A DNA stretch of 56,175 bases from Actinomycetota bacterium (GTDB taxonomy: Bacteria; Actinomycetota; Actinomycetes; Actinomycetales; Microbacteriaceae). Position 1 is the first letter of the stretch. The number at the start of each line of letters is the position of its first letter. Positions 17,618 through 22,062 of the stretch are shown here, one piece after another. The stretch lies in assembly GCA_009704535.1 (NCBI GenBank), contig WLEA01000001.1, positions 1 through 56,175 on the forward strand, read 5' to 3'. A model generated the notes under the pieces. It was not told the DNA's origin. It made no database searches and saw only the letters and a program-made list of their open reading frames with translations. The position numbers and the translations under genes were made by a program.

Positions 17618-17744
17618 ATCGCCACCTTCCTCACGTTCAAAGTGCACCATCTAGGGCGGGTGAACCCTCCATCCACAAGTGTGAACCTATGGGGCGGATA
17701 GACCCGATAGGGCGCGCCGGCATGCCCCCAGCTGCCCCAGCAGC

Positions 17745-18737
17745 CTAGGGAAGGGTCACCACTCCCGCTATCAGCGCAGGCGAGACGTCATAGGAACGCG
17801 CAATAGCCACGGCCGCCAGGATGGTGGGCAGGTCATCGGGTATCACCCACCCGGCCTCCTCGAGCTCCTCGGTAGTCGAAATCTCGAGGGCCTGGTGCGC
17901 CCGATCCTCAAGGAAGGCCCGGTCGCAGAGAATACCCTCCACGAGGCCTAGATCGCTCATTCCCGGTGAGTCCAGTCCAATCCCAATTGCCCGGGCACCC
18001 TCGAGTACATCCGCGTCCTTCACCATCTCCTCAGTGGGTCCGACGCTGCGGCGATAGACACATGCCGTGGTCGTCGCATCAAACCGCGCTCCGCTGGGAG
18101 TCACGCCGGCATCTCCCAGGGACACCGTGAGCGCGGGTCTGCGCAGCGCCTCGGGATAGCGCTGCCACCAGCCGACGCCCGTCGACCCCGCCACAATAAT
18201 GAGTGTTGTGTAGGGCTCAGGGTCACGAAGTGCATCCAGTAGTGGGGCGCTCTCCAGCCCGACGTGCCGGGCACTACGACCATCAGCCACCAGTATCCGG
18301 GCTGCTAGATCAGCAATACGCGGCCCGTCGGTCTCCCCGACGACCAGTATCCACTGCGCTACGACGTCGTTCTTGTCTCGGACTCTCCACGCGAAATCCA
18401 CATCCGACCAGACTGGAACCCCCCCTCCCAGAAGCGCGCCCGCAACGGGGTCGTCACTGGAAACATCAGGAGAGACTATGGCGAGATCCGCAGTGTGACC
18501 AAGCGCTGCCTGCACCCTCGAGAGGACATCGCCAGAGACGTGGACTCCGGCGCCGATGACTTCGCAAATCCGCACGACATCGCTCTTGGCATCCGGTGCA
18601 ACAGCCAGAACTTCTGCGCCCAGCTCGACCAGCGTGTCAACAACGGCAAAGCCGGTGGCGTCGAGGCCAACGACTACGACCCTCACGCCAGACCAATCAC
18701 TATGCCAACTAGTCAGCGAGTCCAGCAAAGAGGCCAT
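17745..18737 (-). CDS. MurD-derived protein, predicted catalytically dead (no P-loop, no C-terminal domain)
   Basis: murD position; MurD-like N-terminus (LDSLTSWHSDW..V.V.GL..TGFAV.DTL.ELGA) and DRAFLEDR; GTNGKTT replaced by GETDGPR; 330 aa. Confidence 0.85.
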   Translation of the reverse strand: MASLLDSLTSWHSDWSGVRVVVVGLDATGFAVVDTLVELGAEVLAVAPDAKSDVVRICEVIGAGVHVSGDVLSRVQAALGHTADLAIVSPDVSSDDPVAGALLGGGVPVWSDVDFAWRVRDKNDVVAQWILVVGETDGPRIADLAARILVADGRSARHVGLESAPLLDALRDPEPYTTLIIVAGSTGVGWWQRYPEALRRPALTVSLGDAGVTPSGARFDATTTACVYRRSVGPTEEMVKDADVLEGARAIGIGLDSPGMSDLGLVEGILCDRAFLEDRAHQALEISTTEELEEAGWVIPDDLPTILAAVAIARSYDVSPALIAGVVTLP

Positions 18738-19834
18738 CAGCGGCTGAGCCACTCCAAGTAGAACACTCCTGCACCCGCAGCGGCAAACAGGCCAGCGATG
18801 AGCCAGAACCTGACGACAATGGTGACCTCAGCCCAGCCTTTGATTTCGTAGTGGTGGTGCAGAGGGGAAGAGTAAAAGACCCGTTTTCCGCCGGTTGCCT
18901 TGAAATACAGGCGTTGAATAATGACGGAGCCCGTCAAAATGACGAACAAGCCACCGACAATGGGCAGCAGGACTTCGGTTCGGGAGAACAGAGCCAGGGC
19001 TGCCACACCGCCACCAAGACTCAACGACCCGGTGTCGCCCATGAAGATTTTTGCTGGCGAGGTATTCCACCAGAGGAAACCAATGAGGCTCGCTGAAATG
19101 ATCGCCGCGACAGAGGTCAACTCCAGTGAATCGCGCACCTCATAACACTTGTAAACGTTCTCTTCATCGACCACACCGCGGAAACACGATTGGTTGAACT
19201 GCCAGAACGTGATCATGACGTAGGCGACGAAAACCAGGATGGTTGACCCACTGGCAAGCCCGTCCAGGCCATCAGTGAGATTGACCGCGTTTGACGTCCC
19301 CACAATTATCAGGCTCGCCCACACGGCAAAAGCAATAATTGCGCCTATCTGACCGAGACCGACAAAGGAAACAAGATCGGCGTTGCGGATCACGGAGATA
19401 CCCAGTGCCGCCGGTGTCTGGTTGTCGTTATCGGGAAAGGACACGGCCAGCACCGCAAACGTGACCGAAGCCAAGATTTGCCCGACGACCTTGGCTCGCG
19501 GACTGAGCCCCAAAGACTGCTGGCGGCGGACTTTAGAAAAATCGTCCAAGAAGCCGACAATTCCTAGGGTGACCATCAACCCAATGACGAGGACCGCTGA
19601 CTGAGTTACCGGTGCGCCCTCGATAAGGTGCGCCCCGAAATACCCCGCGACCACGGCGAGCAAAATAACAATGCCACCCATAGTGGGTGTGCCACGCTTC
19701 ACGAAGTGGGTTTTGGGGCCATCCTGGCGGATGAACTGTCCCCACCCCAGTTTCCCAAAGAGCCTAATGAAGAGCGGCGTGAGGAATAGCGAAAAGAAGA
19801 GCGCGATAGCGCTGCCGAGCAAAAGAATCCTCAC
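18737..19834 (-). CDS. mraY: Phospho-MurNAc-pentapeptide transferase MraY
   Basis: GTPTMGG, GFLDD, NAVNLTDGLDGL, FMGDTGS, PLHHH. Confidence 0.97.
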   Translation of the reverse strand: MRILLLGSAIALFFSLFLTPLFIRLFGKLGWGQFIRQDGPKTHFVKRGTPTMGGIVILLAVVAGYFGAHLIEGAPVTQSAVLVIGLMVTLGIVGFLDDFSKVRRQQSLGLSPRAKVVGQILASVTFAVLAVSFPDNDNQTPAALGISVIRNADLVSFVGLGQIGAIIAFAVWASLIIVGTSNAVNLTDGLDGLASGSTILVFVAYVMITFWQFNQSCFRGVVDEENVYKCYEVRDSLELTSVAAIISASLIGFLWWNTSPAKIFMGDTGSLSLGGGVAALALFSRTEVLLPIVGGLFVILTGSVIIQRLYFKATGGKRVFYSSPLHHHYEIKGWAEVTIVVRFWLIAGLFAAAGAGVFYLEWLSR

Positions 19835-20475
19835 GAGAGATCCTCCACGAGCCGCAGAGCGAGGGGAAGCAGCGACTGCCCCGTCGAACCCATCACGAGC
19901 ACCACATCCTCCGGCCGGACAAACGCACGGATGTCATCGTACGCGTCTTCAACACTCTCGCAGTGCTGCGACTCTCCATCCCAGGACCCCTCCCGTCCGA
20001 CGGAGAGAAACAGCGCTCTGGCTTCGGGGCCAACAGCAAAAACCTGGTCCACGTTGAGTCGCACCATCAACGCCCCAAATGCCCCGAGGTTGTCATAGTC
20101 GGACTCTCCGTCGAAATCTAGCGCTCCCGCGGCGACAACCACGCGTCGTTCTCTCGCAGCGAGACCCGTCACGGTTTTGAGTGATGTGGCCGCATCGCTG
20201 ACTCCGAGGGTGCCGGTGTCATCAATGACAAGCACGCCCTCCCCCACTCGATGAACATCGAGTATGTGAGGCTCCGCAGCGCGCACCACTCCCGCGACAG
20301 CCTCGCCAAGGCTTACCCCCGCGCCAACGCGAGCGCTCACTGATTCAAGCGCGCGCTCCAGGAGCCGACGTGACATGGTGGGGACTTCCCAGGCCAGCCT
20401 CTGCTCTCCTGCGACGAGTACTCCCCCAGATCGACCCCAGTCAATCCACGGCTCGTCAAGGGTGACCTCAGTCAT
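19831..20475 (-). CDS. MurF-derived C-terminal-domain protein, predicted catalytically dead
   Basis: murF position; keeps VRLNVD, EGSWDGES and DVVLV; lacks N-terminal and ATP domains; 214 aa; overlaps the murE stop and mraY start. Confidence 0.82.
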   Translation of the reverse strand: MTEVTLDEPWIDWGRSGGVLVAGEQRLAWEVPTMSRRLLERALESVSARVGAGVSLGEAVAGVVRAAEPHILDVHRVGEGVLVIDDTGTLGVSDAATSLKTVTGLAARERRVVVAAGALDFDGESDYDNLGAFGALMVRLNVDQVFAVGPEARALFLSVGREGSWDGESQHCESVEDAYDDIRAFVRPEDVVLVMGSTGQSLLPLALRLVEDLS

Positions 20476-22027
20476 GCGGTTGTTCCGGGGCATAGCCCGC
20501 TTCTCGGAGGGCAGCCCGCGCTTCATCCCGAGCTGAATAGGGAACCTTCCGGCCCGAAATATCCCGGTAGTTCTGGGATCCTGGACCGCTCCAGAGAACG
20601 CTATCGCCCTCCCCCACCAGAGAAACAGCGTGTCGAATTGCCTCACTCGGATCAGGAATCTCGAACCACACGGAGCCCTCAACCGAGCGCACACCCTCGA
20701 GCAGTCCGGCACGAATCACAGCCGGATCTTCGCGCCGAGGGTCGTCATCAGTGACGATAACCACATCGGCAAGTCGTGCTGCAGTCGCACCCATGAGAGG
20801 CCGCTTAGTGGCATCTCTATTTCCTGAGGTGCCACACACCATGACCAGCTTCCCCGTCGTGCGTGAGCGAAGAGTTTCCAGCGTGGCCCGGTATGCGTCT
20901 TCACTACGACCTGCATCAACAAACACTTGAGGGCCAGTCGGTCCCGACACTCGCTCAACCCGACCCGGAACGAACACGGGAATACCCGCTGTGCCAGGGC
21001 CCATTGCCGTGGCCATGTCGGCGGGTGGCACCCCCTGAAGAATGAGCATCACCGCGGCGAGAGCCGCGTTGGAGACCATGTGTTCTCCCATGATGGGGGC
21101 CGAGAATTCGATGGCCCAAGCCTCGGGCCCGCTCACCGAGAACATGGTGGTGTCACCCGAGATTCCGGTAATCGCGTAGCGCCAATGCGGTACCTCCTCC
21201 ACGCCCTCCGACCCGGCCCGGCCGAGTGTCCAGAACGGGATTGTGGTCTGGCGGGCGAGGGCCAGCCCCCAGGATGTATCCACACAGATGACGGCCTTGT
21301 GAGAGCGCTCCGGTGTAAACAGGGCGGCCTTGGCCGCCAGGTAACGGTCCATATTGCCGAAGTCTTCAAAATGGTCGTGGCTCAAATTGGTAAACCCGGC
21401 AACATCGACCATCACACGATCGAGACGGTTTTTTTCCAGAGCCTGCGCACTGACCTCAATGGCAAGCCCACTGACGCCTTGTTCTTTGGCCAGTGCCAAC
21501 ATGGCGTGAATGTCCGGGGCCTCAGGGGTCGTCAGGGTGCTCGTGTAGGGAACGCCCGCCACAACGCGCTCAGCAGTAGTGGATAGCGCCGTCGTCCAGC
21601 CAAGGCCCCTCATGAGCGCGTCCAAGAGAAACGCCGTGGAGGTTTTCCCGTTGGTCCCGGTCACTGCAGCGATCGCCATAGAGCCGACATCGTCGGTGCC
21701 ATAAATCTCCGCAGCGATTGCTCCTAAGTGGCCCCTGGGGTCCTCGAGCACCAGTGTCGGTGTCATCTCCGGCAGCAGGCTGGCGCCAGCAGTGTCAGTA
21801 AGAACCGCGGTGGCCCCGGCGGCCGCTGCCTCTGGCCAAAATTCGATTCCGTGGCGGTTGGCACCCGGAAGTGCCGCGAAGAGATCCCCGGGCTGAACGA
21901 GACCCGTGTGGAGGGCAACACCCGTTACCAGGACATCGGGGCCCGAGTGGAGAGCCTTCACCGTGCTGGCTAACTGACGTGTCGAGAGTGGCGTGGGTCG
22001 CTGCGGACGAGGAATCTCAGCCATCAT
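20468..22027 (-). CDS. murE: MurE-family Mur ligase with divergent amino-acid-binding motifs
   Basis: PGDLF, VTGTNGKT, TTPEA, NLSHDH, GxRDxxKR, DDDPR. Confidence 0.9.
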   Translation of the reverse strand: MMAEIPRPQRPTPLSTRQLASTVKALHSGPDVLVTGVALHTGLVQPGDLFAALPGANRHGIEFWPEAAAAGATAVLTDTAGASLLPEMTPTLVLEDPRGHLGAIAAEIYGTDDVGSMAIAAVTGTNGKTSTAFLLDALMRGLGWTTALSTTAERVVAGVPYTSTLTTPEAPDIHAMLALAKEQGVSGLAIEVSAQALEKNRLDRVMVDVAGFTNLSHDHFEDFGNMDRYLAAKAALFTPERSHKAVICVDTSWGLALARQTTIPFWTLGRAGSEGVEEVPHWRYAITGISGDTTMFSVSGPEAWAIEFSAPIMGEHMVSNAALAAVMLILQGVPPADMATAMGPGTAGIPVFVPGRVERVSGPTGPQVFVDAGRSEDAYRATLETLRSRTTGKLVMVCGTSGNRDATKRPLMGATAARLADVVIVTDDDPRREDPAVIRAGLLEGVRSVEGSVWFEIPDPSEAIRHAVSLVGEGDSVLWSGPGSQNYRDISGRKVPYSARDEARAALREAGYAPEQPHD

Positions 22028-22062
22028 CGCCCTCTCTCTTGTCACCGACCGGCCGGGTGTCC

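Follow-up and report, generated by a model that had tools for sequence, protein, structure and literature searches.

The DNA analysed here (the window, 56,175 nucleotides) comes from a Pontimonas genome of the family Microbacteriaceae (1.45 Mb, 59% GC, 93% complete, 126 contigs). In its dcw cluster, a murF remnant is flanked by murE and mraY, both of them intact, and a murD remnant is also present. The features considered are the following.

20468..22045, minus strand: murE, intact, the upstream neighbour (TIGR01085, 325 bits vs. cut-off 257)
20475..19831, minus strand: murF remnant, 214 aa, comprising the end of the central domain (residues 1-77) and a C-terminal Mur ligase domain
19834..20244, minus strand: that C-terminal domain (C-domain), residues 78-214, present in every remnant looked at
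20056..20064, minus strand: VRL motif, residues 138-140, with both CGN and AGG codons at the invariant R139
19969..19992, minus strand: EGSWDGES loop, residues 162-169
19936..19941, minus strand: TACGAT, putative -10 box, codons Y179-D180, ~105 nt before mraY
18737..19834, minus strand: mraY, intact (TIGR00445, 283 bits vs. cut-off 192)
17745..18737, minus strand: murD remnant, 330 aa, N-terminal and central domains only, with no P-loop and no C-terminal domain

The ATG of the murF remnant at 20475 gives an 8 nt overlap with the end of murE (20468), its stop overlaps the mraY GTG by 4 nt, and the plus strand is closed. The P-loop G[ST]xGK[ST] was not found in it. The length, the missing P-loop and both overlaps agree with the preliminary description of this DNA, which had not included the replacement cassette, the murD remnant or the embedded -10 box reported below. 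Mur_ligase_C is the sole Pfam match above its cut-off (38.3 bits vs. 28.4), and the murF profile TIGR01143 gives 34.2 bits against a cut-off of 288.6, over profile positions 236-411 of 418. The AlphaFold2 model has a mean pLDDT of 93, and its best Foldseek matches are MurF chains (TM-score ~0.7 over the query).

Residues were compared across 78 rows, namely 48 remnants and 30 full-length MurF proteins. In this alignment, the DAYNA position reads DTGTL (residues 86-90), GxMxELG reads GALDFDG (117-123) and VKxS reads VMGS (194-197), and VRLNVD, EGSWDGES and DVVLV are all retained, exactly as had been read from the sequence beforehand. Position in the murE-murF-mraY order, the Mur_ligase_C domain and the fold identify the gene as a MurF orthologue; the score below the TIGR01143 cut-off and the missing N-terminal domain, P-loop and DAYNA/MxELG/KS motifs set it apart from active MurF. 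This loss of motifs and domains supports the earlier proposal that the protein cannot add D-Ala-D-Ala alone.

A frameshift, a split gene or an assembly error was considered and rejected, as murE directly abuts the remnant and no 5' half of murF was found anywhere in the genome. The remnant was matched in 34 of 36 other same-genus genomes, the two misses being 63% and 73% complete. Among 30 same-genus loci examined, the window included, a complete open frame of 145-215 aa for the remnant, running from the murE stop, is present in 26, which likewise argues against a frameshift or assembly error; contig ends truncate the other four. The best 150 profile-search matches include many more short proteins of the remnant type, some of which may be assembly fragments.

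Selection was estimated by a simple Nei-Gojobori dN/dS, which becomes imprecise once dS exceeds 1, and likewise in high-GC genera. Across 15 same-genus pairs from the six closest genomes, the C-domain (78-214) gave 0.049-0.091 in every pair, compared with 0.049-0.113 for murE and 0.014-0.056 for mraY. Residues 1-77, which are variable and missing from some relatives, gave 0.19-0.43. One further close same-genus pair gave 0.26 for the remnant at a dS of 0.05, and values in other genera were higher (0.12-0.61, 6 pairs). On these estimates, the remnant is under strong purifying selection comparable to that on active MurE, and therefore the reading frame is not junk. With an unbroken frame and dN/dS well away from 1, it does not qualify as a decaying pseudogene; with its catalytic residues lost and its fold under purifying selection, it qualifies as a pseudoenzyme.

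Probable replacement enzymes and the recurrence of remnants

The best murF match of the genome lies outside the dcw cluster (G000:C81:400-1956). The MurF encoded there has five hydrophobic segments at its N-terminus and keeps the GSYGKT, DDTYNSN and GMVELG motifs intact, and its gene sits between an alpha/beta hydrolase gene and a ddl-like gene, with DUF3515 and thiL adjoining. Thus, the search for another MurF and for ddl that the preliminary description had called for recovered a full second MurF with a ddl-like gene beside it. That description had also named what would count against it, a full murF elsewhere combined with no purifying selection on the ORF; the former exists, and the latter is contradicted by the dN/dS values. 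Against TIGR01143 the second MurF scores 182 bits, under the cut-off of 289, so that its activity is a matter of inference, and its homologues carry the MurF name from automatic annotation only. It likely supplies D-Ala-D-Ala ligase activity in place of the dcw murF, and this membrane-anchored protein is likely the product of an acquired gene.

The hydrolase/MurF/ddl-like cassette (G000:C81:1-3140, L019) is found at the DUF3515-thiL locus in several other genera too, and its ddl-like protein reads YQEKY in the loop whose sequence marks D-Ala-D-Ala as opposed to D-Ala-D-Lac ligases. A second ddl-like gene, the best PF07478 match of the genome, lies at G000:C83:20520-21464 between a PLP-dependent aminotransferase-like gene and parB. 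A similar hydrolase-murF-ddl layout is, we assume, present in Helicobacter. HP0740 is named murF (PMC6501431). In the P. salivibrio genome paper, the peptidoglycan genes are called 'mostly typical' and the main text contains neither 'murF' nor 'murD' (PMC6106888). Its supplementary rows bearing these names give one MurF and one MurD, with 3/10 and 1/10 of their top matches in the family (PMC6106888), and these few in-family matches are consistent with acquired copies; the remnants may stand in further rows under different names.

Within the genus, the second MurF was detected in 36 of 38 genomes, including all 15 well-assembled ones, and the genome search returned no separate full-length dcw-type MurF at E <= 1e-15. 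In one genome, 59% complete, the second MurF is in three pieces (G005:C7:38741-40282), possibly through an assembly error. Outside the genus, it is carried by 22 of 295 family genomes, from 8 genera, and all 22 have a remnant of 132-335 aa in the dcw slot without DAYNA or MxELG. A contig end truncates one of these remnants, a P-loop-like GSVGKS is retained in one, and the shortest has 132 aa. The same state is seen in one-contig genomes. Seven of eight congeners without this second MurF have a full MurF; the eighth (G176) combines a dcw remnant of 154 aa with a different full MurF, scoring above the cut-off, which is the only one found there and lies in a vanH-vanA-vanX-murF-like cluster (L159:5284-9341). 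Among the remaining 273 family genomes, in a minority of which the dcw slot was inspected, the query finds a MurF-like match in 268 (E <= 1e-15), and three of the other five have a MurF above the cut-off.

On a five-gene tree (MurE, MraY, FtsW, MurG and MurC; 50 rows, FastTree), the remnant state requires 7 changes, all forced by starred branches, and on a quick tree of MraY alone it requires 7, of which 6 are forced. A tree of the MurF C-domain with the catalytic columns left in separates the remnants from all else by a single branch (1 change); with those columns removed (79 columns remaining) it gives 7 changes at weak support, 1 of them forced, and the case for several origins therefore rests on the neighbouring genes. 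Change counts on a tree cannot separate gain from loss. Since a full enzyme is not regainable without transfer, the simple reading would be several independent decays of murF. The tree of second MurFs partly matches the host tree, which suggests that the cassette may be old in the group, with the redundancy it created settled either way.

The search outside Microbacteriaceae (401 class and 381 order genomes) yielded 7 further carriers of a second MurF. In 5 of these, from 3 lineages, murF is gone between murE and mraY, so the role of the remnant is not universal; a family-mate of one deletion lineage has the conserved motif described below. No relaxation of conserved residues common to the deletion lineages was seen in MurE, MraY, MurD, FtsW, MurG or MurC. 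The other 2 carriers, from different families, have a MurE extended in frame at its end by the C-domain remnant.

L272:1983-3989 (G1037) and L273:3875-5893 (G476): MurE-remnant fusions, a full MurE followed by a dead MurF C-terminal domain

G1037 is a one-contig genome, and its fusion linker is a VPDTT repeat. The other 7 genomes of the G476 family have a separate full MurF. Both fusions keep VRL and EGSWGxES and lack TACGAT, which shows that the motif can be retained at the protein level when the -10 box is absent. As evidence for MurE as a docking partner, fusion draws on these two genomes and is an arrangement that any in-frame deletion can yield.

A parallel situation is found for murD. 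In the host genome, a MurL-like gene and a second MurD lie upstream of rph (G000:C118). MurL occurs in 20 of 301 family genomes, and in 17 of 19 carriers examined the dcw murD lacks a P-loop, is ~300-355 aa long and retains family motifs, DRAF among them; the exceptions are an intact murD in G324 and altered motifs in G106. By comparison, the murD P-loop is intact in all 33 examined genomes without MurL. The murD remnant has a dN/dS of 0.07-0.14 (6 same-genus pairs) and contains no -10 box comparable to that of the murF remnant. Going by approximate start calls, murD and ftsW overlap or abut in most genomes with an intact murD and are separated by ~50-140 nt in most remnant carriers (17650-17745 in the window). 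A murI was not found in the host genome with PF01177; the two PF01177 matches were rejected as murI, being overlapping contig-end pieces that resemble an aspartate-racemase-type protein.

Protein constraint, a putative internal promoter and competing explanations

Neither remnant group retains the positions that are invariant in full-length MurF (WRM, NDAYNASPDS, MxELG, KSS..GD), whereas none of the 78 rows departs from R139, G149, G163, S164, W165, G167 and E168. Synonymous codons vary across the EGSWDGES loop, S164 being written with both TCN and AGT, and conservation in the EGSWxGES motif is three-base-periodic. Invariant residues with free codon choice indicate that the constraint acts on the protein. 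The earlier suggestion that the gene mainly preserves translational coupling is accordingly insufficient, as specific residues stay fixed while their codons vary. The pattern VRL..EG[SA][WF] is present in 14/14 full-length MurF proteins of other actinomycete families and absent from both replacement MurFs (the C81 type and the van-cluster type of G176). In the AlphaFold2 secondary structure, R139-L140 and E162-E168 precede beta-strands and the lost motifs follow strands, so that the conserved patch and the lost motifs would lie on opposite edges of the predicted sheet.

The DNA of the remnant appears to carry a second signal. A TANNNT -10 hexamer is the consensus of housekeeping-sigma promoters, and such a conserved hexamer is found at codons 179-180, which read TACGAT or TACGCT in 48/48 remnants and fit TAnnnT in 18/30 full-length murF genes. 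TAC and GAT make up only about half of the Tyr and Asp codons in neighbouring genes. Across seven dcw genes, TAnnnT is present at this site in 41/41 genomes, against a maximum of 9 of 38-41 genomes at any other site. No conserved -35 element was found in the aligned DNA upstream of TACGAT, and a promoter scan of the E. coli type returned nothing at the site. Based on this conservation, TACGAT is likely the -10 box of an internal housekeeping-sigma promoter for mraY onward, with a possible +1 at about 19928.

The reading that we favour, at a probability of roughly 0.62 and from comparative sequence evidence, is that the remnant serves a non-catalytic protein role, as a docking module, and in addition houses an internal promoter. 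We infer that MurF of actinomycetes also has a structural function, one that the replacement, without the VRL/EGSWxGES motif, cannot take over. The arrival of a foreign MurF would have made catalysis by the dcw MurF redundant, whereupon the catalytic half would have eroded. The C-domain would have stayed by docking on another protein through its R139/EGSWxGES edge, which is missing in the newcomer, and in this family the remnant DNA would also drive mraY and the genes after it. Docking may take place within a MurE-MurF-MraY-MurD assembly. As the coupled upstream gene and the recipient of two fusions, MurE is the leading guess for the partner, itself a doubtful one; other candidates are MraY, MurD and a division protein. 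The earlier idea of a partner domain for MurE is plausible and gains two natural examples in the MurE-remnant fusions, MurE being a putative partner. A search for the partner through genus-specific substitutions gave no signal. MurE of the genus has fixed C-terminal-domain changes relative to the rest of the family (e.g. HHPR->DDPR at 434-437; 378-385; 404-407), which may alter the amino acid that it adds.

A more far-reaching proposal, which we hold tentatively and at somewhat under even odds, is that actinomycete MurF and MurD are bifunctional, acting also as subunits of a dcw-encoded MurE-MurF-MraY-MurD assembly, and that recurrent replacement by foreign enzymes has split these functions at least 7 times, exposing docking surfaces. 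The candidate surfaces would be VRL/EGSWxGES in MurF and EGxRA/DRAF in MurD. Counting against docking among Mur proteins, a fragment-complementation screen in M. tuberculosis detected no Mur-Mur interactions, though all four Mur ligases screened bound FtsZ, FtsW, FtsQ, Wag31 and SepF (PMC3605390).

An alternative that we consider unlikely, yet deserving of serious weight, is that the remnant is kept mainly in cis, as an internal promoter for mraY-murD-ftsW-murG-murC together with translational coupling, and that the amino-acid constraint merely keeps an unavoidable product folded and harmless. The invariance of TAnnnT at one site in all remnants, even where Asp has become Ala (TACGCT), fits this explanation, and the box alone could account for the family never deleting the 3' end of the remnant. 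However, a promoter requires tens of bases, and at least 132 codons are always retained. The start and stop overlaps persist in most loci, and outright deletion of murF was seen only outside the family, both in favour of a role in cis; the three-base periodicity of motif conservation, the two MurE fusions that keep the motif without the box, and the conservation of a murD remnant lacking such a box all point instead to the protein.

Small-ligand binding, with the domain recognising D-Ala-D-Ala or a UDP-MurNAc-peptide and so sensing for, or modulating, a neighbouring enzyme, is improbable. In Mur ligases the incoming amino acid is indeed bound by the C-terminal domain, and D126-Y127-D128 is invariant in 26/26 same-genus remnants. 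Moreover, in a fusion protein the kinetics of alanine racemase are modulated by a MurF-like region (PMC13726279). The parts that have diverged, however, are precisely the loops after the beta-strands (the DAYNA, MxELG and KS sites), and their lengths differ between lineages.

Completion of a split ligase in trans, with the murF remnant providing, for example, domain 3 for a murD remnant that consists of domains 1-2, is very improbable: the two remnants in the window are indeed complementary in domain content, but both lack a P-loop, and MurF remnants are found beside intact MurD, as are MurD remnants beside long open murF frames. Finally, the 126 contigs and 93% completeness of the genome might suggest an assembly artefact or a recent pseudogene; this has a negligible probability and is rejected on the 26 complete open same-genus frames, the low C-domain dN/dS (dN below 0.1 at dS above 1) and the like state of one-contig genomes.

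Significance and comparison with known systems

Whether Mur ligases form a physical complex is a long-standing question on which the data conflict (PMC10214165 vs. PMC3605390). The genomes described here are natural separation-of-function mutants, in which catalysis has apparently been outsourced and one MurF surface and two MurD domains have been retained; if the bifunctional reading holds, they expose docking surfaces of the long-sought complex. The comparison names the exact residues to mutate, in actinomycetes that are harmless and culturable, and indicates an actinomycete-specific MurF surface that alignments of solved proteobacterial MurF do not cover. Deleting the remnant would likely remove the internal promoter too. 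For annotation, such genes resemble pseudogenes or receive wrong murF/murD names.

Non-catalytic reuse of Mur folds and MurE-MurF chimeras already have precedents. MurF itself (TIGR01143; PDB 4QF5, 4CVK, 1GG4) shares with the remnant the murE/mraY position, the Mur_ligase_C domain and the fold, and differs in having the N-terminal domain, the P-loop and the catalytic motifs. The MurE-like subunit of the plastid-encoded RNA polymerase (PDB 8W9Z, 8R6S, 9EPC) is likewise a non-catalytic Mur fold, with a structural role. It derives, however, from another ligase, resides in a eukaryotic organelle, keeps a near full-length fold and involves no replacement by a second enzyme.

Described MurE-MurF chimeras (PMC10214165; PDB 8F5D) resemble the fusions reported here in joining MurE to MurF sequence, and have been read as a sign of a Mur complex (PMC10214165). 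In those chimeras, the linker connects the MurE C-terminal to the MurF N-terminal domain, and the crystallised form lacks the MurF C-terminal domain; by contrast, G1037 and G476 fuse the MurF C-terminal domain alone to MurE. The MurD2/MurL alternative pathway (PMC8788868) has its likeness in the MurL-like gene and second MurD of the host genome. It is listed for Micromonospora, Actinoplanes, Verrucosispora and Salinispora, not for Microbacteriaceae, in passages that make no mention of a retained dcw murD remnant (PMC8788868). In open-access full text, no account was found of a dead MurF C-domain standing alone, or of a dead MurD, being kept repeatedly after replacement. Lastly, the MurF'-Alr chimera of Phocaeicola dorei (PMC13726279) offers another case of a MurF-like region acting on a different cell-wall enzyme. 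There, the whole MurF-like region is fused to alanine racemase, in Bacteroidota and Chloroflexota (PMC13726279), whereas the remnant described here is a stand-alone C-terminal domain in the dcw operon.
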